Shown here: one piece after another, positions 6,938 to 53,015 of the stretch | How positions within the stretch are numbered: position 1 is the first letter of the stretch | Layout of the letters: the number at the start of each line of letters is the position of its first letter | NCBI GenBank assembly: GCA_964653095.1 | Contig: CAZZEH010000002.1 | Coordinates: forward strand, 88,899-152,898 | Source of the DNA: an uncultured Chitinophagales bacterium | Lineage (GTDB): Bacteria; Bacteroidota; Bacteroidia; Chitinophagales; JADIYW01 | Reading direction: 5' to 3' | Length of the DNA stretch: 64,000 nt | The notes under the pieces: generated by a model | What the model saw: only the letters and a program-made list of their open reading frames with translations | Databases searched by the model: none | Told to the model about the DNA's origin: nothing | Made by a program: the position numbers and the translations under genes

Positions 6938-6965
6938 TTTGAAGGTTAAAATATTGATTTTAAAT

Positions 6966-9368: not shown

Positions 9369-10136
9369 ATGATTATGGAAACATTGACGCTCGAAAAGAA
9401 AAAAGATTACGTTGTAATGACATTAGATCGCGGTAAATCGAATCCGATGAACTTTCAAATGCTGACAGAAATTATTCAGACACTAAAAGATTTAAAACAC
9501 GATTCTGTTGTGAAAGGGCTTATTATTACCGGAAAGGAAAATTTCTATTCTGCCGGACTGGATTTGCCTGAAATAATTACTTACGACCGTGAAAAGACCA
9601 GAGATTTTTGGAGAGGTTTCATGGAGTTAATCTCTGAGTTAGTTTCTTTTCCCAAACCTCTGGTTGCATCCATAACCGGTCATGCACCTGCGGGAGGTTG
9701 TATCGTAGCTATTTCGTGTGATTACAGAGTCATGGCAGAAGGAAATTATAAAATAGGATTGAATGAAGTGCCGGTTGGTATCATTGTACCCCGACATGTG
9801 TACGACCTGTATGCATTTTGGCTCGGATCGCATAACGCTTACCAATTTTTGTTGGAGGGAAAATTGATGAATCCACAAAAAGCTTTGGAAGCAGGTCTGG
9901 TGGATGAAGTAGTACCGGCTGAAATGACATTGGAAGCTGCCGAGAAAAAGTTAGCTCAGTATTTAAGCTATAATCAGGAAACTTGGCGCGCTTCAAAATA
10001 TAATATGAGAAGAAATTTAATAGAGAAAGTGTCTGCTTATGATGAAGCGATGATAGATAGAGTAATAGAACATTGGTTTAGCCCCAAAACTCAACAAATC
10101 TTAAACGGTTTTGTGGCCATGCTAAAAAAGAAATAG
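9369..10136 (+). CDS. Enoyl-CoA hydratase/isomerase (crotonase) family protein
   Basis: 255 aa. Crotonase oxyanion-hole context (FYSAGLDL, ITGHAPAGGC). Confidence 0.8.
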   Translation: MIMETLTLEKKKDYVVMTLDRGKSNPMNFQMLTEIIQTLKDLKHDSVVKGLIITGKENFYSAGLDLPEIITYDREKTRDFWRGFMELISELVSFPKPLVASITGHAPAGGCIVAISCDYRVMAEGNYKIGLNEVPVGIIVPRHVYDLYAFWLGSHNAYQFLLEGKLMNPQKALEAGLVDEVVPAEMTLEAAEKKLAQYLSYNQETWRASKYNMRRNLIEKVSAYDEAMIDRVIEHWFSPKTQQILNGFVAMLKKK

Positions 10137-10179
10137 TTAGTTTTGTCCCGTTCATGAAGTATTTTTTTCTTATTTAAAC

Positions 10180-13328: not shown

Positions 13329-13345
13329 GTCTTTCTGAGAATAAA

Positions 13346-14248
13346 TCAGCTGCTTTGTTCTACCAAATCTAAAATTCTTTCTAAATCGGCTGCGGAATAA
13401 AAAGGGATTAAAATCTCTCCTTTATCTTCTTTGCCTTTTTTGATTCGAACCTTTGTTTCCAAGGCATTCATGAACCTGTCCTGTATGTTTTTATAGGCAG
13501 TGGGCAGTTGCTTAGAAGCCGTTTTGACGGGTTGTTTGGATTCCTGTTTTTTAAGTGTCCGAACCAGCTCTTCTGTTTTTCGTACAGACAATCCTTTTGA
13601 CTCTACTTCTTTGAATGCATAGAGTTGTTTATCGATTTCTTCAATTGAAATTAAAGCTCTCGCATGTCCCATGCTGATCGTTCTGTTTTTGAGAGCCTGT
13701 TGTATTTCAGGTGGAAGTTTCAGCAGTCTGAGATAATTTGTGACAGTGGAGCGATCTTTTCCGAGTCTGTCGCCCAGAGTTTCGTGAGTCAAATCACACT
13801 CATCAATTAGGCGTTTATAGTTAATGGAGATTTCCATTGCGTTCAGGTCTTCGCGCTGAATGTTTTCTATCAGAGCAATTTCCAATGATTCCTGATCATT
13901 AATTTCTCTTACATAGGCAGGAATAACGGTCAGTCCGGCCAGTTTGGAAGCTCTTAGTCTCCTTTCTCCGGCTACCAGCTGGAATTTTTTCGGCCCGATT
14001 TTTCTTACGGTAATGGGTTGAATAACGCCATGTACTTTGATCGATTTAGACAAATCATCGAGGGCTTCTTCATTAAAATCCGATCTTGGCTGGAATGGAT
14101 TCACTTCAATTGCGTCCAGAGAAATATTGGAAACAGTATTAATAATGGAATCAATATCCTGCTCATTAATTTTTATAACCTCACTGTCTTCTCCCATATC
14201 TGAGAGAAGTGCCCGAATACCGCTTCCAACAAATTTCTTTTTTGCCAT
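13346..14248 (-). CDS. parB: Chromosome partitioning protein ParB/Spo0J
   Basis: 300 aa. IEVNPFQPR, GVIQPITVR, LVAGERRLRA and an HTH (STVTNYLRLLKLP). Confidence 0.92.
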   Translation of the reverse strand: MAKKKFVGSGIRALLSDMGEDSEVIKINEQDIDSIINTVSNISLDAIEVNPFQPRSDFNEEALDDLSKSIKVHGVIQPITVRKIGPKKFQLVAGERRLRASKLAGLTVIPAYVREINDQESLEIALIENIQREDLNAMEISINYKRLIDECDLTHETLGDRLGKDRSTVTNYLRLLKLPPEIQQALKNRTISMGHARALISIEEIDKQLYAFKEVESKGLSVRKTEELVRTLKKQESKQPVKTASKQLPTAYKNIQDRFMNALETKVRIKKGKEDKGEILIPFYSAADLERILDLVEQSS

Positions 14249-14251
14249 AGT

Positions 14252-15055
14252 TTAATTTAGTTCAGCCTGATTATTTCCTGCAACAGGTATCAGGTCATTG
14301 GATTGTAAAATTTCCTGAGCCAAATTTAAATAATTGACGGCACCTTTACAATCGGCATCATATAATATCACAGGTGTACGCATACTTTGAGCTTCACCTA
14401 ATCTTGTGTTTCTGTGAATAATAGTTTTAAAAACACTGTCTCCAAACCTGCGTCTGACTTCCTGCACGACCTGATTAGAAAGATTGAGACGCATGTCGTA
14501 CATAGTGAGCAGGATACCTTCTATTTCGAGTTTTGTGTTGAGTCTTGACTGAACGATTTTAATTGTATTTAAAAGTTTCCCAAGCCCTTCAAGAGCAAAA
14601 AATTCACATTGAACCGGAATCATGACAGAGTCAGAGGCCGTTAAGGCATTAACTGTTATCAGACCTAATGAAGGTGAGCAGTCTATGATAATAAAGTCAA
14701 AATCATCCTGTATAGGTTCAAGCATCATTTTCATGATATATTCTCTGTTGGGATGATTAATTAGCTCTATTTCAGCCCCAACTAAGTCGAGATGTGAGGG
14801 GATTAGAAACAAATTTGGCGTTTCCGTTTCCAAGACTATATCCTTGACCGGTTTCTCTTCTATCAGGCACTCGTACAAGCTGACTTTTATGGACTTAGGG
14901 TCGTGACCGCTGCCGCTGGTACTGTTGGCCTGAGGGTCTGCATCGACCAATAGAGTTTTGTATTCTAAAACTGCCAGGCTTGCCGCCAAATTTATGGCTG
15001 TAGTAGTTTTCCCCACCCCGCCTTTCTGATTGGCTATACTGATTATTTTCCCCAT
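14252..15055 (-). CDS. parA: Chromosome partitioning ATPase ParA/Soj
   Basis: 267 aa. Deviant Walker A NQKGGVGKTT and the DCSPSLG motif. Lies 3 nt upstream of parB. Confidence 0.92.
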   Translation of the reverse strand: MGKIISIANQKGGVGKTTTAINLAASLAVLEYKTLLVDADPQANSTSGSGHDPKSIKVSLYECLIEEKPVKDIVLETETPNLFLIPSHLDLVGAEIELINHPNREYIMKMMLEPIQDDFDFIIIDCSPSLGLITVNALTASDSVMIPVQCEFFALEGLGKLLNTIKIVQSRLNTKLEIEGILLTMYDMRLNLSNQVVQEVRRRFGDSVFKTIIHRNTRLGEAQSMRTPVILYDADCKGAVNYLNLAQEILQSNDLIPVAGNNQAELN

Positions 15056-15058
15056 GTT

Positions 15059-15742
15059 TTAAATTTCTATACTTTCTCCTATTGTTGGTAATATTAATTC
15101 GATTCCCGACCGGATGAAAATTTCTTTTGTTTTTTGATGATCAATTTTTATAAATCCAAAAGTATCGAAATGTACTCCTATGACCTTTGAAGCACCTGAA
15201 AACTCAGCTGCTGCGGCTGCATCATCGGCATCCATAGTAAAATTATCGCCGACCGGTAAAACAGCAAAGTCAAGTTTTGTCCACCTTGGAATAAGCTTCA
15301 TATCCAGAGTTAATGCGGTATCTCCGCTGTAATAAAAATTACCTTCATTGGTAGTAAAGACAAATCCCATCGGGTTTCCGCCGTATGAACCATCCGGCAG
15401 CCCGGAAGAATGTTGTGCTACAACACATTTTACTGTTCCAAAATCAAAGTTCCACTTCCCGCCGGTATTCATTGGATGAATATTTTTAACACCGTGTTTT
15501 TGCAGCCATTCAGTTACTTCAAAAGCTCCTACACAAGTCGCTCCGGTTCGTTTGGCAAGTGCTATGGCATCCGCTATATGATCGGAATGTCCGTGAGATA
15601 TAAAAATATAATCACAATTAATATTGTCCAAAGAAATAATTCCGTGAGTCATTTCATTCGGAGTTATAAATGGGTCGAAAAGAATAGTTTTTCCGCTAAT
15701 TACAGTCGAAAAGCAAGCATGTCCGTAAAAGGTTAATTTCAT
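15059..15742 (-). CDS. Metallo-beta-lactamase-fold metal-dependent hydrolase (UPF0173-like)
   Basis: 227 aa. HxHxDH motif (SHGHSDH). Lies 3 nt upstream of parA, so probably the same transcript. Confidence 0.8.
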   Translation of the reverse strand: MKLTFYGHACFSTVISGKTILFDPFITPNEMTHGIISLDNINCDYIFISHGHSDHIADAIALAKRTGATCVGAFEVTEWLQKHGVKNIHPMNTGGKWNFDFGTVKCVVAQHSSGLPDGSYGGNPMGFVFTTNEGNFYYSGDTALTLDMKLIPRWTKLDFAVLPVGDNFTMDADDAAAAAEFSGASKVIGVHFDTFGFIKIDHQKTKEIFIRSGIELILPTIGESIEI

Positions 15743-15883
15743 TTCAAAATGATTTTAAACTTCTTCAAATATAAGGCTTAAACTTTTTAGAGCTGTTAAT
15801 TCAATCTTATAATTCCCCACAGAGTATGTGGATAAACATCTTGAAGCCAGTTAAAGTATAATTTCGTAATTTTGCCTGAGGTT

Positions 15884-16408
15884 ATGATTACTCTAATTTC
15901 TGCAACAAACAGGCCTGACAGCTGGACAAGAAAAATCACAGAAATATATAAAAACTTATTGGCAGAAAAAGGACTATCGTTTATGCTCTTGGACATGACG
16001 GAGTTGCCGGCAGAAGTGTTTCATGATGATATGTACAGAGAAAGGTCTGAGCAATTTATAGAGTTTGAGAGAAAATACCTTATTCCTGCCGATACTTTTA
16101 TTTTTGTTATTCCGGAGTATAATGGCACTTATCCCGGGGTGCTGAAATTAATGTTGGATGCAAGCGACATTAAGCAGGCATATCACCACAAAAAGGCTGC
16201 AATAATAGGTGTTTCCAGCGGTCGTGCCGGTAATCTTAGGGGAATGGATGATTTGACGAATGTACTTAATTTCCTTAAAATCAACGTACTGCATCTGAAA
16301 ATACCTATATCTTCTGTTCATAAACTGTTTGATACGCAAGGGAAGTTTCTGTCAGAAGAAGCCGTACGGCTAATGAATGAGCAAATAGACTTACTTTTGA
16401 AAATGTAA
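15884..16408 (+). CDS. NAD(P)H-dependent FMN reductase family oxidoreductase
   Basis: Flavodoxin-like fold (ITLISATNRP..S.T, VIPEYNGTYPG). The ORF track starts at TTG 15872; ATG 15884 is more likely. Confidence 0.75.
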   Translation: MITLISATNRPDSWTRKITEIYKNLLAEKGLSFMLLDMTELPAEVFHDDMYRERSEQFIEFERKYLIPADTFIFVIPEYNGTYPGVLKLMLDASDIKQAYHHKKAAIIGVSSGRAGNLRGMDDLTNVLNFLKINVLHLKIPISSVHKLFDTQGKFLSEEAVRLMNEQIDLLLKM

Positions 16409-16418
16409 TTCTTACCTC

Positions 16419-18026
16419 ATGCACAAATTTTTCTTTAAGATCATATTATTGAGTGCTGTTTTTACCTCCTGTAAGAATTCGGAGAATACAGATCAGAGAA
16501 AAATCTTTCGATTTAATGTATCCTCCGGTTTATCTTCTTTGGATCCGGCGTTCTCCAAAGATCAGGCGACTATGTGGATGTGCAGTCAGGTATATAACGG
16601 TTTGTTACAGTTAGATGATTCGCTCAATGTGATTCCTGCTATTGCCAAAAGTTACACTATATCTGAAAATGGCTTGACTTATACTTTTTTGTTGAGAGAT
16701 GATGTATTTTTTCATGACCATCCTCTTTTTGAACAGGGAGAAGGCAGGAGAGTGGTTGCAGATGATTTTGTTTATAGCTTTAACAGAATTATTGATGAGA
16801 AAGTGGCCTCTTCCGGAGCTTGGTTGTTTCACGGCAAGGTAGCCGATAAAGAACCTTTTGCCGCGGTTAGTGATTCGGTATTTGTGCTGAAATTAAAAGT
16901 TCCGTTCAGGCCTATGGCCGGATTACTGACTTTACAGTATTGTTCTGTGGTTCCGAAAGAAATAGTAGAGTATTATGGCAAAGACTTTAGAACTGTCGCG
17001 ATAGGCACAGGACCTTTTAAATTAAAAAAGTGGCAGGAAGGAGAAGCGTTGGTTCTGACTAAAAATGATAATTATTTCGAGAAAGATTCATTAGGAGTCC
17101 GACTGCCGTACATTGACGGAGTGAGAATCAGCTTTCTTGCGGATAGGGGAGTGGAATTCTTGCAGTTTGCTCAGGGTGGTTTTGATATGGTCAATGGTAT
17201 AGATAAGTCATTTATTGACAAAGCATTAGATGTTCAGGGTAATTTAAAAGAAAGTGCCGGAAAAGATATTACTATGATTCGTATTCCATACATGAATACG
17301 GAGTATTTAGGATTTTCTATGCGGAAAGCTCGAAATGAAGCTTTGAAAAATGTAAAAGTTCGACAGGCTATAAATTATGCAATTGACAGAGAGAAGATGC
17401 TGATTTATCTGCGTAATGGTGTAGGTACTCCTGCTTATCACGGAATCATTCCTAAAGGTGTCAAAGGTTTTAATCCGGAGGTATTTGGTTACTCCTTTCA
17501 ACCTGATAAATCTAAAGAGCTTTTGGCGGAGGCAGGGTATCCGGGAGGGAAGGGTATGGATAAAATAATTCTGAGTTCCAATCCCATGTATCAGGATTTA
17601 ACCGAATTTATAGCCAAGTCATTGGAGAATATTGGATTAAAAGTGGAAGTTCAGCTGTCGCCCGGCTCCTTTTTACGGGAGGCTATGTCTAAAAATGAGG
17701 TGGACTTTTTCAGAGCTTCCTGGATAGGAGATTATCCTGATGCGGAAAATTTTCTGGCACTTTTTTATGGAAAAAACAGCGCACCTCCCAACTATACCCA
17801 TTTTAGTAATCCTGAATATGACAGGTTATATCTTCAGGCAATGTCGGCGAAGGGTGATGCTGAAGCAGCTATACTTTATAGGCAAATGGAACAAATAATG
17901 TTGGAAGAATCGCCAATTGTACCCTTGTTCTATGATGAGCTTGTCCGGTTTACAGGAAAGCGGGTTAAATTTCTTTCGAGTAATGCGATGAACTCCCTTA
18001 TTTTGAAAACGGCGGTGTTGGAGTAG
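16419..18026 (+). CDS. ABC transporter substrate-binding protein, family 5 (peptide/nickel type), lipoprotein
   Basis: 535 aa. Lipoprotein signal (AVFTSC). SBP_bac_5 features (LDPA...Q.YNGLL, GTGPFKL, AGYP.G). Confidence 0.8.
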   Translation: MHKFFFKIILLSAVFTSCKNSENTDQRKIFRFNVSSGLSSLDPAFSKDQATMWMCSQVYNGLLQLDDSLNVIPAIAKSYTISENGLTYTFLLRDDVFFHDHPLFEQGEGRRVVADDFVYSFNRIIDEKVASSGAWLFHGKVADKEPFAAVSDSVFVLKLKVPFRPMAGLLTLQYCSVVPKEIVEYYGKDFRTVAIGTGPFKLKKWQEGEALVLTKNDNYFEKDSLGVRLPYIDGVRISFLADRGVEFLQFAQGGFDMVNGIDKSFIDKALDVQGNLKESAGKDITMIRIPYMNTEYLGFSMRKARNEALKNVKVRQAINYAIDREKMLIYLRNGVGTPAYHGIIPKGVKGFNPEVFGYSFQPDKSKELLAEAGYPGGKGMDKIILSSNPMYQDLTEFIAKSLENIGLKVEVQLSPGSFLREAMSKNEVDFFRASWIGDYPDAENFLALFYGKNSAPPNYTHFSNPEYDRLYLQAMSAKGDAEAAILYRQMEQIMLEESPIVPLFYDELVRFTGKRVKFLSSNAMNSLILKTAVLE

Positions 18027-39915: not shown

Positions 39916-40518
39916 ATGAAAGTACTTAAAAACAAGAACCAAATTAAGGCTATTGCAATGGCCTGTTTAGTTGCAGTTTCATTTACTGCATGTAATCAAA
40001 ATCAGGATAACAGCAATAATGAAGATGAAATAATTGTGGCGGAGGAGGTACAGGAAGCACCTGCATTTTCTGATCCTCAAATTGCTGCTATTGTAGTTGT
40101 GGCGAACCAAATAGACGTGGATTATGGTAAAATCGCTCTGGAAAAATCTCAGAATGAGGAGGTGCTAAACTTTGCCAACACGATGATTAAAGACCACGAA
40201 CAGATTATTCAGAGCGCATCCGACTTATGTGGTCAGTTGGGTGTGGTACCGGAAGAAAACGATTTTACAGAAACATTGCTCAATGGTCAAAAAGATGTAT
40301 TGGCAAGTTTTGAAGGATTAGGAGGTGCCGATTTTGATAAAGCTTATATTGAGAATGAAGCGGCTTATCACGATGCAGTAATTAATGCTGTGAAGGATAT
40401 TTTAATTCCACAGACTGAAAATGAACAACTTAAGCAGGCTTTAATAGACGTAACTCCATTACTAGAGCATCACTTGGAAATGGCAAAAATGGCTCAGGGA
40501 AAAATAAATAATAACTGA
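39916..40518 (+). CDS. DUF4142 domain-containing lipoprotein
   Basis: 200 aa. Lipoprotein signal (SFTAC). Duplicated helical pattern (FANTMIKDHE...; FDKAYIENEAAYH). Confidence 0.75.
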   Translation: MKVLKNKNQIKAIAMACLVAVSFTACNQNQDNSNNEDEIIVAEEVQEAPAFSDPQIAAIVVVANQIDVDYGKIALEKSQNEEVLNFANTMIKDHEQIIQSASDLCGQLGVVPEENDFTETLLNGQKDVLASFEGLGGADFDKAYIENEAAYHDAVINAVKDILIPQTENEQLKQALIDVTPLLEHHLEMAKMAQGKINNN

Positions 40519-40916
40519 TGATGAAAGTTTGGACTTGGATAGTCATGATGGGTTTTCTGCTAATGAGTTGCAATACACAACCGCCAGCAGAAGAATCAGA
40601 AAACACAGAAAATATATCGCAGGAAGTGCCGGTTGATGAGGAAGAAACATCTTTTGCGATTAATGAACACAAGTTTTTAGTGACCATCAAAAGTATGCAG
40701 TTTGCTCCTCAAAATTTGGAAGTAAGTGTCGGAGATACAGTGGTTTGGGTCAATCAGGATATTGTGACTCATAATGTAACCAATATAGATGATGCATGGA
40801 CTTCCGGTGATATTAATGTGGGAGACAGTTGGGAAATGATTATTGAAAATGAAATAAAGTATTATTGTACACTTCATCCTACCATGAAAGCTTCTGTTTT
40901 GGTGATAGGAGAGTAA
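40518..40916 (+). CDS. Cupredoxin (amicyanin/plastocyanin-like type 1 blue copper protein), lipoprotein
   Basis: 132 aa. LLMSC lipobox. Ligand pattern H (VTHNV) ... C-x2-H-x2-M (YYCTLHPTM). The ATG overlaps the upstream stop (TGATG). Confidence 0.8.
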   Translation: MMKVWTWIVMMGFLLMSCNTQPPAEESENTENISQEVPVDEEETSFAINEHKFLVTIKSMQFAPQNLEVSVGDTVVWVNQDIVTHNVTNIDDAWTSGDINVGDSWEMIIENEIKYYCTLHPTMKASVLVIGE

Positions 40917-40947: not shown

Positions 40948-40977
40948 CTGCCCTCAAATCTTTGGGGGCAGTTTTTT
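40948..40977 (+). terminator. Intrinsic terminator after the cupredoxin gene
   Basis: ctgccctc/gggggcag stem (one G-U pair) followed by TTTTTT. It overlaps the TTG at 40962 that the ORF track uses as the start of the next gene. Confidence 0.7.
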
Positions 40978-41021
40978 ATACTCTTATTTTTTCTTTACTT
41001 TATTGGAGAAAAAAGACGGGT

Positions 41022-41687
41022 ATGTTTGACCACCATCAATTTAGAGATTTTACTGATGAAGAAATTGTAGAAAAAATTCTTTCCGGGGATAAAGAGTATT
41101 ATGAAATTCTGGTAAGGCGGCATAATTCCTACCTCTATAAAATTGGGAGATCATACGGATTCGGACACGATGATACAGAAGATTTGATGCAGGAGACTTA
41201 TGTCAGCGCCTATGAACATCTCGCCGATTTTGAAGGGAGAGCAGCTCTTAAAACCTGGTTGGTGAAAATTATGATTCACAAATGCTACAGGAAAGCCAAT
41301 CGCTTAGGATTTCAAAACGAAACACCCGCTTCGGATAAAATTGGAAACCAAATCAGATATCCTGATGACAGGCTCACAGATGGTCAAAAAGTGGTTCAAA
41401 ATGAGGAGCTAAAAGAGATTTTGGAAAAAGCTACTTTACAGCTTCCGGAAGATTATAGAATGGTATTTACGCTCAGAGAGCTCAACGGATTATCCACCGC
41501 CGAGACGGCAGATGCTCTCAATATTTCTCTGTCCAATGTAAAGGTCAAGCTCAACAGAGCAAAAAAAATACTTCGAAAAGAGATACAAAAAGAGTTTTCA
41601 CCGGAGGATATCTTTGAGTTTCATTTGAAATACTGTGACGGATTGACTCATAAAGTGATGCACCCAATCAAATCGACATTAAAGTAA
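41022..41687 (+). CDS. ECF-type RNA polymerase sigma-70 family factor
   Basis: Sigma-2 region (DLMQETYVSAY...WL) and sigma-4 HTH (FTLRELNGLSTAETADALNISLSNVKVKLNRAKK). Start placed at ATG 41022 because the upstream extension runs through a terminator. Confidence 0.85.
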   Translation: MFDHHQFRDFTDEEIVEKILSGDKEYYEILVRRHNSYLYKIGRSYGFGHDDTEDLMQETYVSAYEHLADFEGRAALKTWLVKIMIHKCYRKANRLGFQNETPASDKIGNQIRYPDDRLTDGQKVVQNEELKEILEKATLQLPEDYRMVFTLRELNGLSTAETADALNISLSNVKVKLNRAKKILRKEIQKEFSPEDIFEFHLKYCDGLTHKVMHPIKSTLK

Positions 41688-43378: not shown

Positions 43379-43386
43379 TATCTTTG
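43379..43386 (+). promoter_or_regulatory. Candidate -7 promoter box (TAnnTTTG) for the two-gene unit 43426-53015
   Basis: tatctttg lies 40 nt upstream of ATG 43426. No -33 TTG at canonical spacing. Confidence 0.3.
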
Positions 43387-43425
43387 AGATAAATAAGGTG
43401 GAGTTTTAAAATAAATAGCTTACTA

Positions 43426-44022
43426 ATGATAAATAAAGCACTTCATGTATCGGCTTTGATAGCTATGATTATTTTTCTGCTGGTTGAAGTTCGTGGTCAG
43501 GATGTGGGTACGACAGATGGAACAGAGTCTTATATTAATCATCCGTCTTTAAATTCGGCAGTATTTAAAGAGTACTGGATGAGCTATTCAGATATATACC
43601 GGAATGCAGATTTAAATCTTGAAGCAGTTATTCAGCAATATCTGAATAATCAGGTTCCTGATGCAGTAAGAGTAGATTTATATAAAAAAATATTTGAACA
43701 GTCTGACTTTAGAAACTGGATGCCTGAGCTCAGATCAATACTTCTGTATCAGCTTGTCGAAACAGATAAGAATAGCGAGACTCCGGCGTATATGCTTAGA
43801 GAAAGGAGTTTCGGGGAATTTGTAGAAAGAATAAATGAGATTATCCGGGTAGAGTTTGCAGAATTAGATAAAAAAATTAAATCTTATGAGGAGGAATATG
43901 CTCATCAGGGATTGAGCGTTCCGGTGGAGGTCAGTGAACAACAGAAGTTAGAAGCAATTCAGGAAGTGTATAAAAATACTTTTGAAGGTAAGCCTGATTT
44001 AAATCTATTTATAGTTAAATGA
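43426..44022 (+). CDS. Hypothetical secreted protein (198 aa), translationally coupled to the giant gene
   Basis: N-terminal hydrophobic signal (ALIAMIIFLLVEVRG/QD); the rest is predicted helical and charged. Its stop overlaps the next ATG (ATGA at 44019-44022). Confidence 0.65.
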   Translation: MINKALHVSALIAMIIFLLVEVRGQDVGTTDGTESYINHPSLNSAVFKEYWMSYSDIYRNADLNLEAVIQQYLNNQVPDAVRVDLYKKIFEQSDFRNWMPELRSILLYQLVETDKNSETPAYMLRERSFGEFVERINEIIRVEFAELDKKIKSYEEEYAHQGLSVPVEVSEQQKLEAIQEVYKNTFEGKPDLNLFIVK

Positions 44023-47000
44023 TATTTTACTTGAATATGAATCAACCTTACTTAAAAAAAATATTAACTCTATCTTTTCTGATATGTTCACTTTTATCTG
44101 CTTCGACACTTTTTGGACAGGTTACAGTGAGATATAATGGGACAGCGACCGGACTTACCACTACTTGTACAGATGGTTGCGTATGGCCCTTTTGTCCCAA
44201 TGATCCGGAAAGGAGTTTCGAGCTTGAAATCAAGCGGGTCACGGGCGGTAACCAGGCAGATGGGGGCGGAGCTACAACTGCTGCAGATAATTGTTCGAAC
44301 ACTCCTAATACCAGTTTCTCCACAAAGAATGCAGGTATAACGCTTTATTGTTCTGGAGCGGTCATTCACATTCGGGGCAAAGCAGGAGAATCAGATGCTA
44401 TTATAGGATGTGGTGGTATGGAGTGTGAAACTCCTTGGTCAGGCTGGACAAATTTTACAGTTTTAAATACGACAAGCCAGAATTGGGGCCCTGTATATGT
44501 TTCCGGAAACGGAAGCACCGGTAATTTGTCCTCAACAATCTCCTTTACAGGGAATTTTCGGGCGAATGCCAGGGATGGGAATAAGAACTTTAGTTGTGCG
44601 ACAGCTTGGGCTTTACCAGCTAATGGGAGCGGTACGCCTATTGACGGGCATACAACTAATTGCGGTGATGCCTGGTACAAATACACTCTCACAGATAATA
44701 ATTTACAATATATCGAATTTGAGCCCACCGCACCACTTTCAAGCTTAAACACTTCTGAGATATCCGAAGTTCGTTATAATAATTGCACAGGCTGCCAGAT
44801 GGGAGGTGAAGCTTCGTTTATAGGAAATAAATATCGCGTGGATAATCCCAAGCCTGGAGATTATTTTATAAGAGTACATGTATTTAAGACAGACTTAATT
44901 GGTGCGTTTGATTTAAGTTTTAAACTGGAAGTTCGAAAAGGTAGTACAGTGGCCGTACCATCCAATGATAACTTGTGTGATGCAATAGAACTCAGCGGCA
45001 ATTACAACTACAATTCGGGAGACCTTTCGGCATCTTCCAATACAAAAAATGCATCTTCAGAAGATTATTGCGGAATGAATGAACCGGAGTCGGATAATGA
45101 AAAAACAGTTTGGTATAAATTTACAACAGGAGATTTGCCACCAACCGTACTTACTATTGACCCAAAAGCGGGAAGTTCTACTCAATACGGTCGGGCAGTT
45201 TTATACAAGCAAAACAGTGTGCCTAATTGTAATGCATATCCAACGCCGAACTTTTTTAATGCATTATCAAAAGTTGGTGAGAGTACAGCAGGAGTCTCAT
45301 TTAAAGTAAGATGTCTTGATCCGAATAAGACTTATTATTTACAACTTTTCACAAGACAGTTATTGCCGTTACCTTCTACGAAAGATGCCGGACCTGTTTC
45401 TGTTACAATCGAGAACAGTGGCACCACTAAAGGGCCGGATTTCATTTGTCTTCCGGCGAGTTCTGCTATACCCGGGAAAGACGGATATCTTGGGAAATTA
45501 GACAGTTACGACAATACTAATTTAATAGCCGAAAAGCAGACCACGAGCTGTGCGACAGTCAGTACCGGCAACGGAGAGCCAGTCAATTCTTCCCGATCAC
45601 TCAAGCAGACTGTCTGGTATCGGTTTGACACGCCTCATGCAGATTATTCGGACAGTACTCTGATGCATTTATACGACATTAGTGCCATAAGGTTAAGTAG
45701 TACTTCGCTCTTAACTAATCCGAGAATTTTCCTTTACGAGGAAACCCAAAATACTAACAGAGCATGTGGCGACAGCAATGGGGATTATGCCAATTTGAAG
45801 TTTATAGAAAGTAGTGAAGAGTTTTATCAGGAAATTGGAAGCTTTGTGCCACAAGATGCCACCCTGAAAGACTTGTGTCTGAAGCCTAATACGAAATATT
45901 TTGTCCGTGTGGATCAGGCAGGACTGATTAGTGTATTGGGTATTGACGTATTTGTAGATTTTGATTTGGTTATAAAAAAATCGGCATTCCGACCGGGGAA
46001 CGATATCTGTGAGGCTACCGAAATGCCGGGAAATATATTTACGGGCAGGAATAAAATCACGACTCAAAACCATGCACGATTAACCGGAGCTCCTTTTTTT
46101 GGGTTGCCTCACTCTAATAAATGCGCCTCTTCAGACCCGGGCGAACCTAATGTAAAGCCCGGCGCACCAGGTGGAGTAGGCGATAAATACACGGCAAGTG
46201 TCTGGTATAAGTTTACAACGGATGGTGCTCCTTCCGAATGGATTGAGTGGGATTTCAGCTCAAAACTATTAAGAGGAGACAGAGGTGATGTGTGTTTATT
46301 GGGCGAGCATTTTGGAGCAAATATTTTCATCTATAAATCTAAAAATAATACTTGCTCATATCCGACATTGCAAATACAATCAGAATATGATAAAGCTTGG
46401 GAAGTGCCGCCTGCATCTTCCACTCCAAGTGTGAACAGACAAAGATGCCCAGAACCCAATACAACTTACTATGTACAGGTACAAGATGCGGATTTTTTCT
46501 CGACAGACTTCTCTACCTGTTATGAGGGGGTGTATGATTTGACTATCACTACAGCCGGCACAACTGTTAATCCACCGGAAAATGATGAGCCGTGCGGAGC
46601 TATTCCTTTGGGAACAGTACCTGTGAGCGGTTCATTGGATAAAGATATACGTAACAATAATAAGGTTTTTGATAATTTCTGCGCAACTCCGAGTAAAGGC
46701 TTTATACCTGATCCGGATCATGAACTCAAGCATGATGTGTGGTTTGCCTTTGTGCCGCCCCCGTCAGGCTCTGTAATGATTACTGCCCAGTCTGCTCCGT
46801 CCGGTATTCCAAGTAATGCCGATAAAAATATAGACCTGCAAATTGCTATATGGGAACCTATAATGGGAGAACATCTGCAGCAGCCTAACTGTGCAGACCC
46901 AAGGTATTTGTGGACTCCCATTGTGTCCAGAAACCATGGGCTTTTGGACTATGAAGATTCCGATTTATTGGGAATATTTGACACTTATTATAATATTGTT

Positions 47001-50000
47001 GATACCAAAAACAATATTCTTTTTACTAAGGGAAATAGTTTAATAGCCACCTGTCTTGACCCCGGCAAGCTGTACTATATTCAGGTAGATGGAACAGATT
47101 ATTTCCTTTGCGACTTTCTCAATGGCGGAGATTGTACTATGGGTTATTTTTCCATGCAGGTAACAGATGCAGGATTGTATGATATGGCTTCCATGAGAGA
47201 CCAGCCGGCCGGTAATGATGAACCGTGCGGAGCTAAAACTCTGAATGTACAACCATATAATAGAACTGAGGCGCAGCTCACCTGGCAAGTAGGAAGTAAC
47301 TTGTGTGCGTCTGGTTTTAATGATCCACTTCCTTCTACCTGGAATTCTACAGATGCTACGGTATGGTATAAATTTACAGCACCGGCTTCCGGTAGAGTAA
47401 AAATACGCGCAAAAGAAAACGGAAGAATTAATCGTCGGGACAAGTCCAATCCAAATTCACCTAATGCTCAATTGGCAACATCCAATCATGACTATCACGA
47501 TGGGATAAATTTGCAGCTGGCCCTTTATACCATGGGAAATTGTCTCAACAAGTCTTCTTTAGTAGAAATAACTTCGAGTTATGACGGAGCCTTAGTAGAA
47601 ATGAATCCGGCTAATGAAGATGACTTTATCGGTCTGACTGAAATCACAGGGCGAGATGAATATATGGTTGCCCGATGTCTGATTCCGGGCAAGGAATACT
47701 ATATTATGGTGGATGGGGAAAATGACCCTACAATTGGCTACACTTCTACAATCCAGGAAATTTTGCCCAATAGTATCAAATATGTGACTGGGGACTTTAA
47801 GATATCAGTCCAAGATGATTCTCCAATAGAAGTCAGTATGAATGATAATGTGTGTGATGCCTTTGAGATAACCGGAGTCAATACACTGGGTGTAAACTCT
47901 ACAAAAACGACTGGTATTTTCAATAATGACTGTGCGACAATTGAACCGCACATAGAAGGCCATGGGAAAATAGCTGAGAAAATAAAAGGAAAATTTTGGG
48001 GAATTGTCAACACTAGTCCGGCCACGGCAAATCATACCCTATGGTTCAAATTCAGAGCACCTTCATCAGGGAAAGTCAATATAAAAGCGATTAATGATAA
48101 CCGAGATAAGATGGATATTGCTATGGCTCTGTATGATTTTCCGGGAGAGAACTGCAATCTTGCGGCAGATGGTTTCATGATAGAAGGAAATTATGATCCG
48201 GGTGTTTTACGAGGTGATGCCGAGATGGACGTGGAGTGCTTAATCCCTGGCAGATATTACTATTTGCAGGTATTCGGAGAGAGCAATAATGTGCTTTGTA
48301 CGCTCGGCGGATCAAACTGTGAAAGGGGGCTGTTTCATTTGGAAATTAAACACCTGCCGTTTCAGGCGCGCTCGGATATCCCGCCTCAGAAAAATGATAA
48401 TGTTTGCGATGCTACACTGCTGGGGAATTTGAATCCGGGGGGCGTATTGAATAAGCCGAGCCAAAATAACCGTTGTTCTACGGAAGAAATTAATGAACCC
48501 GGCGGATATGGATTTAATTTCAGTTTCTTTGATGATCAGCTTAGAGGAGTGTGGTACGGATTTAAAACTGGTGCCGGCTCTAATCATCCCGGACAAATAA
48601 CCATTGAGGTCACAAATCCAAGTCACGCCTGTTTAAATCTTCATGTGGAGCTATTTGAGTATAAAGGAGCATTTGACAAAACAACTTGTGAATCTCAAAC
48701 CAATCTAAACACACAGTTCAACAAGCTGTTGAAGGTGGGAAAGGGCTCTGCCTTCTTAACGAGAAGTGAAAAGTTAGTACTGGATTGCCCAAAACCCAAT
48801 ACAGAATATTTTATTCGGGTAACCGGTACAGCTTCTGCCACTTGCTTCGGATTCGGCGATACGCAGGGCGATTTTGATCTGAAAGTAAGTATGAGTGGAG
48901 TATCCATTTCTTCACCAGAAAATGACGATATCTGCGACGCTACTCAGGGAGGAAACAAGGGGAATTTGGGAACACTTCCATCCGGTGGAACAAAATCAGT
49001 GTCTAATCACAATAATATTTGTGCTACTCAGGAATTGGGCGAACCCAATACGACTCAAAGTGCCGTACAAAGCGAACCGGAATATGATGAAACGACTTGG
49101 TATAAATTCAGAACATCTGCCAATCCGGGGAAAATTACCATTCGCCTGAAAACGATTGCACCTATTGATGGTTCTGCTACAGTTCCAAGCTTTACAGTAT
49201 ATAAAGGCAGTTCTGCCAATTACAGCCCATGCGGAAATGCAGGTTTTAGCGGGTTAATAGATTTAGGGGGAGATTGGAGTTCGAATACTAGTCTGGGTAG
49301 CTTTACTATCCGAGACGGAGTATTGGTCTTGCCATGTCCTTCTCCAAATTGGAATTACTTTATACAAGTAGATGGGTATGATTTTGCCCTTTTGGGTGTG
49401 ACAATACCGGGATATACTTCTCAGTTTGTATATGATTTAATTGTAACGGATGACGGAAGTGAAAATATTTATCCTGAAAATGATAACATAGCGGATGCAA
49501 TACCGGTAGATGACGTGCCGCCACTGAATGGTCAATTGGCCTCTGGCGGAACATTGACTATAGCCGGTCATAACCTTTGTGCAACTGTAGAATCGGGCGA
49601 ACCAAATGTGGATAGTGACGTGTCGGATCATCAGAAAAGTGCCGAAGATGAGACTGTTTGGTATTATTTTATTACTCCTGCAAATCCCGGAGTCACTAAG
49701 ATTACGGTAAAAAAAGATCCCGCATATCCGGAGCCTTTGAGTCCTAACTTTACTTTGTATTATAACAATGGTACTGCGCCCACTTATGCCCGAATTACAG
49801 AAGCACCCTCTTCAAAATTAGTACAAGAAGGGAACAGTGGAAATAATACTGGTTTGGGTGCTACGGCTACTGCAAATTACACATGCCTGTTGCCAAACAC
49901 CAAATATTACATTCAGGTGGACGGATACGACAATGTACCGACTAGAACAGACCAAGGCCACTTTATAGTGACAGTTGAAGATGATGGAACCGGTACAGAC

Positions 50001-53000
50001 GTTCCGGCTAACCAGTATTATGATTTAATATGCAGAGCGCAAAATATTACTAATGATATTGTGAATAACGGCGGTGTGACCCTACTCAGAACAAATAAAT
50101 GTTCCTGGGAGGAAATAGATGAACCTAATACGTCACAGGGAATTGAGGTAACCAAAACCGGTATTGATGCTTATGATAATACTGTGTGGTTTAAATTTCA
50201 GCCAAAAATTGACGGAGAATTTACTTTTGATATTACTACTAAAGCCGGTGCGATTAATTACCATAGGTTTACGCTGTACAATGCTCCTTCCGGTTCATTC
50301 AATTGTGCCAATCCAAATTGGAATAATTTGACCCGGATGAGTATGTTTAATGTAAACAGCAATGTAAACAACAATACATTTGGCTGTCTGTTGAAAGACC
50401 AGTGGTACTATATTCAGGTGAAAGGAAGGGCAGGTGATTTTGATTTGAAAATAACCCATAGTGCCAAGTCCGCATTGGATCACGATATGGTCTGTCAAGC
50501 ATGGGACTTTGGCACAGTCGAAAATACAACTGCCAGCGTAGGTAATCAGAATAACAGTTGTGCAACCCAAGAGTTAGGCGAACCGGGTATTAATGGGAAT
50601 TACAATGATATTAACTCATCAAATTATGACAGGACACTTTGGTATAAATTCCGAACACCTGCTCAGATTGGTGATTGGGAAATCTCGGTCACTAATCAAT
50701 CTCCTTTTAATGATCGAATTAGTGCCACCTTTACTCTTTATGAAGCGACCAAAGCTAATATTTGCTCTGGAGCCAATCCAGTTTGGACAAATCTGAATAA
50801 GAAAGACCAGCCGGGACTCCCGATAAATTTGACAGGAGATAACTCATTAGAAATTGAATGCTACAAGCTGAAACCCAATACTTGGTATTTTATTCAGGTT
50901 CATGGCAATGATGCCTGGCCGTTTGGAGATGTGGGTACTAATTTTCAGGTTTCTGTCAAGCACACTCCGAAATTAGCAGGCGGTAACGATAATGTTTGTA
51001 GCCCTGAGATACTAAGCTTCGGAGATGATCCTTATGCCGATAATAACTATTGTGCTACTTCGCAATACGGAGAAATAGATATAGACCCCTGGCCAGAGCA
51101 GGATCCGTTTAGAGACGGCAGAAACTATGACGAAACAATGTGGTACCGTTTTAGAGCACCCGCTCAGGGATATGTGAACATTATTGCCACAAGCAACAAC
51201 CTCCATATGGAGATGGACTTGTACGAGATTTCAAATGGGAGTACGATATGTGCAGGAGGTCAGCCTCAATGGAATAAGTTATTGAAGATTGGTAGTGAAA
51301 AGTCCTCTTTATTAAACCGGAATATCAGTTTAAAAAGTGATTGCCTTCTTCCAGGAAAATGGTATCTTATCCGAATTGACGGGAGGGATGGGATAACTTT
51401 TGACGATAGGGGAGATTATACTATTCAGGTAATTAACGAATATGAAGCCCAGCCCGTAGTATGTAACCCTGTACCTAATGATGATCCATGTAATTTACCT
51501 TCTGCATACGATTTATCTGATTATGTCTTAGAAAATCCTTGCCCGACTAATAGTATGAATTATATTGGAAGTTATGTCATATCCACAAGTACAAACCCGA
51601 GAATTGATTGTGCAACACGATCTCCGTTTGGGTCTCCTTGCGGGGGAATGAATAATTGCAGCGACTATTGGTATAAATTTACGGTACCTATGGATTCAGA
51701 AGGTGGTGTTAGGATACAGGGTAATGATGAGTACGGAGCTTCCAACGGAAACAACTCCACTCAGGTCGTTGCTGCGTACAGAGGCGATCCGTGTACGGGG
51801 CAATTACAATATTTGGGATGTGACTACGGTGGCAGTAGCATACTGGATAAAGATGTAGAATTTGATATTGCAGCTATACCGGGAGAGACTATATATATAC
51901 AAGTGTTTAATGATGATGCTCCATCTAACCCTAATTACTCTACGTTTGGACTTTGTCTGTCAACTCGCTGTGAACCTAAAACAGATTGTGGAGTAACAGA
52001 ATTGACTTATGAAGTGCCACAATGTTGGAATTTAGATGATAAAAATACTCCCGGGAATAACGGTTTGTACGGGAAATGTCTGCCGGGAAGCGTGAAATCC
52101 GAAAACTATTTTACATTCAAGACAGAGTGCGGTGCCACTTCTGACGGAGAACCCGATACGGTAACTATTGTATTTAGTATTACAGATGTATCTTCTAATA
52201 CAGCGTTGGCCATATATGAGGATGCTACTCCGTGCGACGGTTTGGAGGAATCAACTGTGATTAACTGCGTACCATTTGGTAACTGTGTGGGCTGTAGCCC
52301 GATTACAACTTTCTCTCAAACGTATCGATTGGAAGAATGCAAATCTTATGTCATCCAGGTTGTTGGTGAGAAGGACGGCGACGATGGTAGCAGTGGGCAG
52401 ATATACGTGTTTAAGTCAAGTAATCAACCGCCTGTCCTGCCGGTGGAGTTAGTGTCGTTTACAGGATATTATGACGGAACAAATAATATTCTTAACTGGA
52501 ATACGGCATCAGAGGAAAATACAGATCAGTTTATTATTGAAAAATCTCCGGATGGAGAACATTTTTCGGCTATCGGAATTGTGGGAGCTGCCGGAAATTC
52601 GGGAGAAATACAGAAATACAGTTTTGTAGATGAAGATGCCCGGATAGGCAACAACTATTACAGGTTGAGAATTGTAGATTTTGACGGGAAATATGAGTTT
52701 AGTAATGTGATAAATATAGAAGTTGACGGTACAGTTAAAAAGACAGAACAGAATACCTCAGTTCTTTCCATTTATCCCAACCCGACTGATAATAAGACTA
52801 AGGTAGAGATGTATGTAAGTGAAAAACATGCTGACTTTGAAGTTAAAGTGGTGAATATCCTTGGACAAATTCTGCATTCTGAAATGATATCATTTTCCAG
52901 AGGCAATGTTTCGTTTGAAATTGATGCCTCGAAGTATGCTCAGGGAGAATATATCATTTCAATCACCAATAAGAATTCATACGAGTCTTGGAATACGAAG

Positions 53001-53015
53001 TTTATAAAACAATAA
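44019..53015 (+). CDS. Giant (2998 aa) T9SS-secreted cell-surface protein: signal peptide, Cys-rich head, about 15 tandem Cys-bearing PPC-like modules, beta-sandwich domain, type A T9SS C-terminal sorting domain
   Basis: An uninterrupted 9-kb ORF. Signal peptide LSASTLFGQ. Recurring motifs ND.C.A, N.CAT.E.GEP, T.WYKF, C..PNT.YYIQVDG. C-terminal SIYPNPT...GEY.I.I...K sorting-domain pattern. An alternative start is ATG 44037. Confidence 0.9.
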   Translation: MIFYLNMNQPYLKKILTLSFLICSLLSASTLFGQVTVRYNGTATGLTTTCTDGCVWPFCPNDPERSFELEIKRVTGGNQADGGGATTAADNCSNTPNTSFSTKNAGITLYCSGAVIHIRGKAGESDAIIGCGGMECETPWSGWTNFTVLNTTSQNWGPVYVSGNGSTGNLSSTISFTGNFRANARDGNKNFSCATAWALPANGSGTPIDGHTTNCGDAWYKYTLTDNNLQYIEFEPTAPLSSLNTSEISEVRYNNCTGCQMGGEASFIGNKYRVDNPKPGDYFIRVHVFKTDLIGAFDLSFKLEVRKGSTVAVPSNDNLCDAIELSGNYNYNSGDLSASSNTKNASSEDYCGMNEPESDNEKTVWYKFTTGDLPPTVLTIDPKAGSSTQYGRAVLYKQNSVPNCNAYPTPNFFNALSKVGESTAGVSFKVRCLDPNKTYYLQLFTRQLLPLPSTKDAGPVSVTIENSGTTKGPDFICLPASSAIPGKDGYLGKLDSYDNTNLIAEKQTTSCATVSTGNGEPVNSSRSLKQTVWYRFDTPHADYSDSTLMHLYDISAIRLSSTSLLTNPRIFLYEETQNTNRACGDSNGDYANLKFIESSEEFYQEIGSFVPQDATLKDLCLKPNTKYFVRVDQAGLISVLGIDVFVDFDLVIKKSAFRPGNDICEATEMPGNIFTGRNKITTQNHARLTGAPFFGLPHSNKCASSDPGEPNVKPGAPGGVGDKYTASVWYKFTTDGAPSEWIEWDFSSKLLRGDRGDVCLLGEHFGANIFIYKSKNNTCSYPTLQIQSEYDKAWEVPPASSTPSVNRQRCPEPNTTYYVQVQDADFFSTDFSTCYEGVYDLTITTAGTTVNPPENDEPCGAIPLGTVPVSGSLDKDIRNNNKVFDNFCATPSKGFIPDPDHELKHDVWFAFVPPPSGSVMITAQSAPSGIPSNADKNIDLQIAIWEPIMGEHLQQPNCADPRYLWTPIVSRNHGLLDYEDSDLLGIFDTYYNIVDTKNNILFTKGNSLIATCLDPGKLYYIQVDGTDYFLCDFLNGGDCTMGYFSMQVTDAGLYDMASMRDQPAGNDEPCGAKTLNVQPYNRTEAQLTWQVGSNLCASGFNDPLPSTWNSTDATVWYKFTAPASGRVKIRAKENGRINRRDKSNPNSPNAQLATSNHDYHDGINLQLALYTMGNCLNKSSLVEITSSYDGALVEMNPANEDDFIGLTEITGRDEYMVARCLIPGKEYYIMVDGENDPTIGYTSTIQEILPNSIKYVTGDFKISVQDDSPIEVSMNDNVCDAFEITGVNTLGVNSTKTTGIFNNDCATIEPHIEGHGKIAEKIKGKFWGIVNTSPATANHTLWFKFRAPSSGKVNIKAINDNRDKMDIAMALYDFPGENCNLAADGFMIEGNYDPGVLRGDAEMDVECLIPGRYYYLQVFGESNNVLCTLGGSNCERGLFHLEIKHLPFQARSDIPPQKNDNVCDATLLGNLNPGGVLNKPSQNNRCSTEEINEPGGYGFNFSFFDDQLRGVWYGFKTGAGSNHPGQITIEVTNPSHACLNLHVELFEYKGAFDKTTCESQTNLNTQFNKLLKVGKGSAFLTRSEKLVLDCPKPNTEYFIRVTGTASATCFGFGDTQGDFDLKVSMSGVSISSPENDDICDATQGGNKGNLGTLPSGGTKSVSNHNNICATQELGEPNTTQSAVQSEPEYDETTWYKFRTSANPGKITIRLKTIAPIDGSATVPSFTVYKGSSANYSPCGNAGFSGLIDLGGDWSSNTSLGSFTIRDGVLVLPCPSPNWNYFIQVDGYDFALLGVTIPGYTSQFVYDLIVTDDGSENIYPENDNIADAIPVDDVPPLNGQLASGGTLTIAGHNLCATVESGEPNVDSDVSDHQKSAEDETVWYYFITPANPGVTKITVKKDPAYPEPLSPNFTLYYNNGTAPTYARITEAPSSKLVQEGNSGNNTGLGATATANYTCLLPNTKYYIQVDGYDNVPTRTDQGHFIVTVEDDGTGTDVPANQYYDLICRAQNITNDIVNNGGVTLLRTNKCSWEEIDEPNTSQGIEVTKTGIDAYDNTVWFKFQPKIDGEFTFDITTKAGAINYHRFTLYNAPSGSFNCANPNWNNLTRMSMFNVNSNVNNNTFGCLLKDQWYYIQVKGRAGDFDLKITHSAKSALDHDMVCQAWDFGTVENTTASVGNQNNSCATQELGEPGINGNYNDINSSNYDRTLWYKFRTPAQIGDWEISVTNQSPFNDRISATFTLYEATKANICSGANPVWTNLNKKDQPGLPINLTGDNSLEIECYKLKPNTWYFIQVHGNDAWPFGDVGTNFQVSVKHTPKLAGGNDNVCSPEILSFGDDPYADNNYCATSQYGEIDIDPWPEQDPFRDGRNYDETMWYRFRAPAQGYVNIIATSNNLHMEMDLYEISNGSTICAGGQPQWNKLLKIGSEKSSLLNRNISLKSDCLLPGKWYLIRIDGRDGITFDDRGDYTIQVINEYEAQPVVCNPVPNDDPCNLPSAYDLSDYVLENPCPTNSMNYIGSYVISTSTNPRIDCATRSPFGSPCGGMNNCSDYWYKFTVPMDSEGGVRIQGNDEYGASNGNNSTQVVAAYRGDPCTGQLQYLGCDYGGSSILDKDVEFDIAAIPGETIYIQVFNDDAPSNPNYSTFGLCLSTRCEPKTDCGVTELTYEVPQCWNLDDKNTPGNNGLYGKCLPGSVKSENYFTFKTECGATSDGEPDTVTIVFSITDVSSNTALAIYEDATPCDGLEESTVINCVPFGNCVGCSPITTFSQTYRLEECKSYVIQVVGEKDGDDGSSGQIYVFKSSNQPPVLPVELVSFTGYYDGTNNILNWNTASEENTDQFIIEKSPDGEHFSAIGIVGAAGNSGEIQKYSFVDEDARIGNNYYRLRIVDFDGKYEFSNVINIEVDGTVKKTEQNTSVLSIYPNPTDNKTKVEMYVSEKHADFEVKVVNILGQILHSEMISFSRGNVSFEIDASKYAQGEYIISITNKNSYESWNTKFIKQ
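44961..52439 (+). repeat. Protein-level tandem array of 14 modules (157-210 aa each), preceded by a degenerate module at about 44550-44960
   Basis: Module starts (the ND.C motif) are at about 44961, 45433, 45990, 46572, 47204, 47834, 48381, 48912, 49470, 50004, 50475, 50979, 51471 and 51966. The invariant Trp codon of the W(Y/F)xF motif is at 44673, 45111, 45615, 46203, 46740, 47364, 48042, 48552, 49098, 49659, 50187, 50640, 51141 and 51669. The last module has YFTF instead. Confidence 0.8.
52758..53012 (+). other. Type A T9SS C-terminal sorting domain (Por_Secre_tail-like)
   Basis: SVLSIYPNPTDNKTKVEM...VKVVNILGQ...YAQGEYIISI...TKFIKQ, about 85 aa at the extreme C-terminus. Confidence 0.8.

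Follow-up and report, generated by a model that had tools for sequence, protein, structure and literature searches.

What kind of protein is encoded by a single gene of 9 kb in an uncultured Chitinophagales bacterium, and what might it do at the surface of the cell? The gene lies at 44019..53015 on the forward strand of a 64,000-nucleotide stretch of contig CAZZEH010000002.1 (positions 88,899 to 152,898), the whole of which we call the window, and its 2998-residue product is referred to here as the giant protein. An earlier note, made from the sequence without database searches, had read it as a rod- or bead-like surface protein of 14-15 tandem modules exported via a type IX secretion system (T9SS). 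Our analysis leads to a similar answer, to which we give a probability of about 0.6: the giant protein would be a non-enzymatic T9SS cargo made throughout of beta-sandwich domains, likely displayed as a long, anchored fibre on the cell surface and serving as an adhesin or a spacer. None of the outcomes that the earlier note had named as fatal to its reading was observed. What has to be revised is the novelty claimed for it, since the combination of the Pfam families PF23759 and PF18962 already describes this architecture and thousands of protein clusters contain the module.

An ancient array of tandem modules in one reading frame

The open reading frame (ORF) at 44019..53015 (+) runs uninterrupted through 2998 codons plus a stop, with no internal stop codon, and is intact as first described; an alternative ATG start lies at 44037 (Met7). 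With a hidden Markov model (HMM) derived from the repeats, 12 strong modules of 156-211 residues each are detected in tandem at residues 314-2480. When this HMM was rebuilt 12 times with one module left out, every omitted module scored 56-103 bits against the model of the other 11, compared with at most 10.3 bits for the best of 200 shuffles per module. A broader family HMM brings the total in the giant protein to 15 modules, 12 strong and three divergent. Its source is a set of 1349 aligned stretches, namely the domain matches, in 178 fetched proteins, of a profile made from an alignment (A2) of 40 modules from the giant protein and its homologues; the 858 near-full-length modules among these stretches supply the module statistics given below. 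The periodicity reported in the earlier note is thereby recovered, together with its motifs, all of which are present (ND.C.A, N.CAT.E.GEP, VWYKF, LY, CL.PNT.YYIQVDG, and G.F.L.V), and with its spacing of 438-678 nt between in-frame Trp codons, which corresponds to conserved module Trp residues 146-226 residues apart.

The strong, Cys-bearing modules 1-12 (44958..51458, residues 314-2480, +), which resemble pre-peptidase C-terminal (PPC) domains, match the family HMM with independent E-values (iE) of 1e-21 to 2e-40. They begin at 44958, 45438, 45993, 46572, 47205, 47832, 48405, 48912, 49470, 50025, 50496, and 50991, with module 12 ending at 51458. The divergent modules stand on either side, also on the forward strand: the PPC-like Module 0 (44547..44957, residues 177-313; iE 2.5e-7 over residues 177-306) precedes the strong array, and Module 13 (51474..51980, residues 2486-2654; iE 5.9e-17 over residues 2505-2649) and Module 14 (51981..52463, residues 2655-2815; iE 3e-5 over residues 2684-2790) follow it, the last being the most degenerate and without a match in a Pfam scan.

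Tandem Repeats Finder detected no long-period DNA repeat in the gene, and the paralogous modules of the giant protein share just 24-38% identity. Eleven orthologues (2889-3306 residues, 51-56% identity) have the same layout, and in every comparison but one a module of the giant protein finds its best orthologue match at the equivalent position. Identity between orthologous modules is mostly 43-67%, as against at most 38% to any paralogue; values of 30-38% between orthologous modules are confined to a few comparisons, mainly those of modules 1-2 and those with the most distant orthologue (P0012). Copy number among the orthologues varies solely near the N-terminal end. Because there is no repeat at the DNA level, identity between paralogues is low, and the modules are collinear with those of the orthologues, the array is ancient and not an assembly artefact; a recent repeat expansion is ruled out by the same missing DNA repeat and collinearity. 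The higher identity of each module to its orthologues than to its paralogues points to purifying selection on every module.

In scans of the giant protein with Pfam and NCBIfam, the matches above threshold were just the type A T9SS sorting domain and PF23759, and no protease, glycosidase, lectin, or cadherin family was detected, as had been judged from the translation alone. A protease pro-protein is ruled out, these scans having found no peptidase domain anywhere in the protein. The giant protein is a string of about 17 beta-sandwich domains without an enzyme, and a role as a rod or adhesin would agree with this non-catalytic make-up.

Fold of the module and its kinship with PPC domains

The AlphaFold (AF2) model of module 11 (mean predicted local distance difference test score, pLDDT, 91.3; predicted template-modelling score, pTM, 0.88) shows nine strands arranged as a beta-sandwich, in which residues 27-54 form a long ordered loop. 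Its best Foldseek matches in the PDB were the claudin-binding domain at the C-terminus of Clostridium perfringens enterotoxin (C-CPE, the full toxin being CPE) and the collagen-binding domain s3b of ColG (E 6e-5 to 2e-4, probability 1.0, target-normalised template-modelling (TM) score 0.53-0.66), followed by ColH s3, the Eph ligand-binding domains, and CorA/MopE. When this model is taken together with that of residues 35-313 (below), the PPC/collagen-binding jelly-roll is found by matches to ColG s3b, ColH s3, and the PPC domain of a Bacillus anthracis collagenase (5sv5), with probability 1.0 and target-normalised TM scores of 0.52-0.68. Within the PPC superfamily, clostridial collagen-binding domains such as those of ColG form a subclass (PMC4356367).

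With the clostridial domains ColG s3a/s3b and ColH s3 (PDB 1NQD, 1NQJ, 2O8O, 5IKU, and 3JQW) the module shares the jelly-roll (Foldseek E about 1e-4, probability 1.0, TM 0.6-0.68 target-normalised), and with ColG it also shares the order of motifs, from 'ND....A' through Y/W-Y-x-F, LY, and 'G.YY..V' to a final 'Y.L.V', and an arrangement in tandem, ColG s3a-s3b being joined by a Ca2+-switched linker (PMC4356367). Compared with the ColG domain, it has about 60 additional residues, an 'N.CAT.E.GEP' loop pinned by Cys, and two putative disulfides, and it differs from the domains of both ColG and ColH in being present in 15 copies rather than one or two, with no peptidase attached. C-CPE (PDB 8U5E, 9J7X, and 5B2G), the best Foldseek match (E 6e-5, TM 0.58-0.61 target-normalised), belongs with the ColG collagen-binding domain and the module to one class of nine-strand sandwiches, yet its sequence is just 10-12% identical and it is part of a Firmicute toxin of unrelated biology. 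Full-length CPE gave a query-normalised TM of 0.27-0.29 with a root-mean-square deviation (rmsd) of about 20 A, which lends no support to a counterpart of the pore-forming N-terminal part. We rejected a pore-forming toxin like CPE, the shared feature being limited to the fold of the C-terminal binding domain.

At the level of sequence, the Pfam PPC family (PF04151) scores 11.5 bits on the whole giant protein, under its gathering score of 25.9 (E 0.59), and matches one of the 12 modules scanned singly, below threshold (E 0.072); unlike typical PPC domains, the modules of the giant protein do not lie C-terminal to a secreted peptidase. PF23759 ('GBD_T9SS_assoc') passes on the whole protein, with 38 bits against a gathering score of 27, but this score is the sum of many weak stretches, each below threshold. 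Three of the 12 modules match it singly (best E 0.011), and the best stretch, residues 2526-2570, lies in module 13, which scores 17.9 bits when scanned alone. Continuity of sequence with bona fide PPC domains is reached transitively. Five distant members of the module family (P0108, P0118, P0120, P0121, and P0152) score 31-96 bits with PF04151 and 58-125 bits with PF23759, and P0108, P0152, P0118, and P0121 supply the bridge. The overlap is in register: PF23759 begins at the 'ND' motif, PPC falls inside the module from the W-Y-x-F strand on, and in P0152 the module profile and PF23759 cover 806-918 and 809-918, respectively. Sequence searches of the PDB with the module profiles A1 and A2 and with the bridging protein P0152 returned chance-level matches only. 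The derivation from PPC proposed in the earlier note is supported by the module 11 model and by these distant members, and the module is a divergent, enlarged PPC/GBD-like domain. Pfam assigns no function to PF23759, and in the library searched no paper was found on PF23759, on GBD_T9SS_assoc, or on T9SS together with PPC.

Cysteine pairs, the GEP loop, and a possible calcium site

The module has about 170 residues, compared with about 110 in ColG s3b, and the surplus consists mostly of the 'N.CAT.E.GEP' stretch, which is modelled as the loop at residues 27-54. Four alignment columns (7, 31, 100, and 129) hold Cys in 66-87% of the 858 modules. Among these phylogenetically related modules, the odds ratio for joint occurrence is 63 for Cys7 and Cys100 (p 2e-62) and 20 for Cys31 and Cys129 (p 1e-65), and it is about 3 for all other pairings of the four columns. 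In the giant protein, module 9 is without both Cys7 and Cys100 (NDNIADA; ...TAPTYARIT). Because the pairs co-vary so strongly, we infer two disulfides per module, Cys7-Cys100 and Cys31-Cys129, one of which would link the added loop with the strand that precedes 'L.PNT.YYIQV'. An added segment stabilised by disulfides had been proposed from the letters of this one protein, and the longer loop and the covariation across the family fit that proposal.

The Glu of the GEP loop is kept in 65% of the 858 modules. The Ca2+ ligands of ColG s3b (1NQJ), located in the N-terminal linker and in the loop ahead of the aromatic strand, are Glu899, Glu901, Asn903, Asp904, Asp927, and Asp930, and they can be compared with the module position by position. 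An 'ND' with ColG-like spacing to the following Ala occurs in 10 of the 13 N-terminal motifs read in the giant protein and in 76-87% of the 858 modules, and an Asp four residues before the conserved Trp (W-4), aligned to Asp927, in six of 12 modules; equivalents of Glu899/Glu901 and of Asp930 are not conserved in the modules. Since the 'ND' and, in half of the modules, the Asp at W-4 correspond to Asn903, Asp904, and Asp927, a Ca2+-dependent stiffening of the inter-module linkers is plausible by analogy with ColG.

The two ends of the protein

A putative Sec-type signal peptide (44019..44120, residues 1-34, +) was read from the translation, with ...LLSASTLFG before the predicted cleavage site and QVTVRY after it. 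The hydrophobic N-terminal core followed by Gln is kept in the orthologues, and this Gln is probably the mature N-terminus. Next comes a Cys-rich beta-sandwich 'cap' domain (44121..44546, residues 35-176, +), all-beta in the AF2 model, for which a Pfam scan gave no match and a Foldseek search of the PDB gave just a weak likeness to C2 domains (TM 0.41). Among the proteins already fetched, the N-terminal stretch of about 280 residues past the signal peptide is conserved in about 29 giant homologues. The AF2 model of residues 35-313, made from a 22-sequence alignment, is all-beta (pLDDT 82) and gives local Foldseek matches over about 105-132 columns to ColG s3b (1nqd; TM 0.66-0.68, rmsd 3.8 A), and it also matches 5sv5 (TM 0.62). 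The Foldseek output for this model gave no aligned query residues, and we assigned these matches to Module 0 by domain size and motifs.

At the other end, Module 14 is followed by a segment of about 100 residues (52464..52769, residues 2816-2917, +) without a significant Pfam match, recognised by the pattern 'LVSFTG..DG..N.L.W.T..E.N...F.IEKS.DG..F..IG'; guessing from this pattern alone, we take it to be a recurrent domain of Bacteroidota proteins of the immunoglobulin/fibronectin type III (Ig/FN3)-like kind. The protein ends in a type A T9SS C-terminal sorting domain (CTD; 52770..53012, residues 2918-2998, +), as the earlier note had it. Both models of this domain exceed their curated thresholds: PF18962 scores 37.8 bits against a cut-off of 27 (residues 2918-2989) and TIGR04183 scores 31.5 bits against a cut-off of 23 (residues 2918-2998).

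Homologues and spread of the module family

A survey of homologues had been proposed with the first reading of the gene, and in it the type A sorting domain PF18962 proved to be present in all 19 close and distant homologues. PF23759 is in the precomputed annotation of the homologues listed (n=19), except P0012, P0013, and P0019. Remoter relatives are 25-39% identical and reach 4834 residues with 21 modules. The closest genomic relatives found with the whole protein are two loci in metagenome-assembled genomes (MAGs) of Chitinophagales (Bacteroidota), and the single source name among the orthologues reads 'T9SS type A sorting domain-containing protein'. In one of these MAGs (locus L004), two giant PPC-repeat T9SS genes stand in tandem, at 82-7056 and 8004-16811, encoding proteins of at least 2324 residues and of 2935 residues, with a small signal-peptide gene between them.

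The module reaches far beyond these giant proteins. At E<=1e-3, an exhaustive search with the A2 profile matched 7563 clusters (50% identity), and the stricter cut of E<=1e-30 leaves 376; the matched clusters have 2-23 tandem copies per protein. Among the 178 fetched family proteins, 97 carry a type-A-like CTD and nine a type-B-like CTD, and most of the remainder end mid-module or look non-Bacteroidotal; because their sequences end mid-module, most of the proteins without a CTD are taken to be fragments. Members with a name are found in Saprospiraceae, Aureispira, and other Bacteroidota, where they have a type A or type B CTD, and, in a few cases, in Abditibacteriaceae and Chloroflexota. Some family members, such as P0175, carry SprB repeats and a CTD of type B alongside the module.

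Genomic neighbourhood

Directly upstream of the giant gene lies a small companion gene (43426..44022, +) for a protein of 198 residues with a putative N-terminal signal peptide. Its stop overlaps the ATG of the giant gene by 4 nt (ATGA), and the two genes are probably co-translated. A small signal-peptide ORF (137-215 residues) occupies this position in 11 of 11 loci, so that the upstream gene, whose recurrence had also been put forward for checking, accompanies the giant gene throughout. Homology among the small proteins is detectable in six of the 11 loci (window versus L001, E 6e-21; window versus L008, E 6e-18) and extends to loci whose giant protein is just 25-28% identical. The small protein has no relative in Pfam, NCBIfam, or the PDB. 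The predicted secreted protein is a conserved, putative partner of the giant protein.

In four of 10 evaluable related loci, the pair is directly preceded by a gene with an HTTM domain (PF05090) and a VKGC_lumenal_dom (PF22777), located at 4033-5343 in L001, 1964-3340 in L005, 1714-3024 in L008, and 532-3404 (two genes) in L009. These genes resemble vitamin-K-dependent gamma-carboxylases (E 2e-52 and 7e-21), and their association spans giant proteins that are just 25% identical, which suggests that this neighbour is functionally linked, perhaps through maturation in the periplasm. In the window, no HTTM gene was found beside the locus or in the 33 of 45 ORFs that were scanned (at least 130-150 residues long; the 12 shorter ones were left unscanned).

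Elsewhere in the window, a gene at 10180-11136 (+) encodes a T9SS outer-membrane protein that belongs to the PorP/SprF family (E 7e-60), and its 3' end is overlapped by a gene at 11133-13328 (+) for an OmpA-family protein of 731 residues with a PD40 beta-propeller repeat. Because the window encodes these two proteins, the genome carries T9SS components; none of the core T9SS genes gldKLMN and sprA is within the window. The two genes resemble a PorP-PorE pair, and no cargo gene with a type B CTD was seen beside them.

A gene for a sigma factor of the extracytoplasmic function (ECF) type lies 1.7-2.3 kb upstream of the small/giant pair both here (40962-41687, +) and in L001 (2618-3127), and it could be coincidental or a dedicated regulator. 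The Bacteroidota -7 promoter consensus is TAnnTTTG. The sequence TATCTTTG at 43380-43387, 39 nt upstream of the ATG of the small gene, fits it, and a match by chance is quite possible in this AT-rich spacer of 490 bp. A promoter scan gave the same count of promoter-like sites as in shuffles, and in a terminator scan none of 18 terminator-like sites was located after the stop codon. Upstream of the ECF sigma gene, at 39916-40916 (+), a DUF4142 gene is followed by a small cupredoxin/plastocyanin-like gene, and this pair has no evident relation to the giant gene.

Discussion

How might such a protein reach the cell surface and what would it do there? In the reading we favour, Sec would export the giant protein, its signal peptide would be removed, and in the periplasm each module would fold into a PPC/collagen-binding-like jelly-roll whose extra loop of about 50-60 residues is pinned by the disulfides Cys7-Cys100 and Cys31-Cys129. 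The type A CTD would carry the protein through the T9SS translocon, and a PorU-type sortase would cleave it off, the new C-terminus most likely being joined to anionic lipopolysaccharide (A-LPS); processing of type A CTDs and attachment to A-LPS are known (PMC10202324). The approximately 17 short-linked domains would then project as a fibre tens of nanometres long, with the Cys-rich cap at its distal tip, and would serve the cell as a multivalent adhesin or a spacer. Ca2+ bound at the 'ND' linkers may stiffen it, as in the ColG s3a-s3b linker.

Several observations weigh against this reading. Surface attachment is uncertain because not all type A cargo stays anchored, some of it being released (PMC10202324). 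The kinship of the module with PPC domains is also remote: no single module reaches the Pfam threshold of PPC or of PF23759, and a direct hhalign comparison of A2 with ColG s3b alone (a sequence that we checked against 5IKU and 1NQD) gave 3% probability over 26 columns. The register was the right one, with WYKF opposite YYSF and the module Asp at W-4 opposite ColG Asp927, and because this comparison is not significant, homology to PPC rests on the fold and on the transitive matches. The ColG Ca2+ ligands are only partly conserved in the modules. The genes flanking the pair are housekeeping genes (gcvT, ffh, gap, rpoD, cls, mutS, and that for the ECF sigma factor), and the source names seen among homologues are 'hypothetical' or refer to the sorting domain or another domain, none of them functional.

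The possibility of release leads to another explanation of the same array, in which the giant protein is a released, multivalent polymer-binding protein. Once rid of its CTD, the jelly-roll array would diffuse or cover particles, and by binding a polymer (polysaccharide, or fibres of collagen-like or other protein) it would capture or aggregate substrate or prey, much as a row of carbohydrate-binding or collagen-binding modules would. Collagen-binding domains and the claudin-binding C-CPE use this galactose-binding-like/PPC fold class, Pfam names the related family PF23759 'Galactose binding domain-like', and the release of part of the type A cargo would suit such a binder (PMC10202324). We nevertheless think it unlikely, given that the neighbouring part of the window is devoid of genes for glycoside hydrolases, peptidases, or SusC/D and that 15 individually conserved, mutually divergent modules suit a position-specific rod better than a series of equivalent sites. 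Comparison with known giant T9SS cargo raises the further idea of a gliding-motility adhesin, a fibre that would be loaded onto the gliding track and driven over the surface of the cell. SprB and RemA of Flavobacterium johnsoniae are T9SS-secreted gliding adhesins on the cell surface and, like the giant protein, very large, repetitive, and non-enzymatic, and RemA shares with it the type A CTD (PMC10202324). Unlike in them, neither a SprB repeat (PF13573) nor a lectin domain occurs in the giant protein, and, unlike in SprB-type cargo, its CTD is of type A with no PF13585 (the type B CTD). The PorP/SprF gene of the window could speak for gliding, as could family members such as P0175, in which SprB repeats and a CTD of type B accompany the module, but that gene is 33 kb away in a separate operon, and no motility genes (gld/spr) flank the giant gene in the window or in 10 related loci. 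A gliding adhesin therefore seems improbable to us.

The neighbouring genes suggest yet another role, as the substrate of a dedicated periplasmic maturation in which the HTTM enzyme, the small protein, or both modify or chaperone the repeats before export, the modification being essential for function. The Glu of 'CAT.E.GEP', with its 65% conservation, and the approximately 30 disulfides are possible targets; the small gene is a constant companion, and the HTTM+VKGC gene recurs upstream even in a paralogue group that is 25% identical. Against this stand the six of 10 evaluable loci with no adjacent HTTM gene, the lack of one in the scanned part of the window, and a small protein that matches no recognisable family (Pfam, NCBIfam), and we hold this explanation to be about as improbable as gliding. 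A bolder version would join it to the favoured fibre: an undescribed cassette of small partner and giant protein, with the HTTM enzyme in many relatives, in which partner or enzyme matures the modules in the periplasm, for example at the GEP-loop Glu, and whose product would be a new class of Ca2+-stiffened T9SS fibre. We regard this cassette as very doubtful, if slightly less so than the two explanations just weighed.

Returning to the anchored, non-enzymatic fibre or spacer, we assign the giant protein to a known class, that of giant repetitive T9SS surface proteins, and nothing points to a new mechanism. Taken by itself it is an ordinary, though large, hypothetical T9SS surface protein. In environmental Bacteroidota, much of the surface consists of giant T9SS cargo, and to our knowledge almost none of this cargo has been studied outside Flavobacterium and Porphyromonas. 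The PPC/collagen-binding jelly-roll usually occurs in one or two copies behind a protease, whereas here a PPC-like jelly-roll has been expanded into rods of 9-23 copies that appear to be stapled by disulfides. Thousands of clusters that bear the module are barely detected by current domain models, and a dedicated profile, for example one based on alignment A2, would better annotate these proteins. How proteins of 300 kDa with about 85 cysteines are kept competent for secretion in the periplasm may in turn be approached through the conserved small partner and through the VKGC-like gene that recurs beside it.

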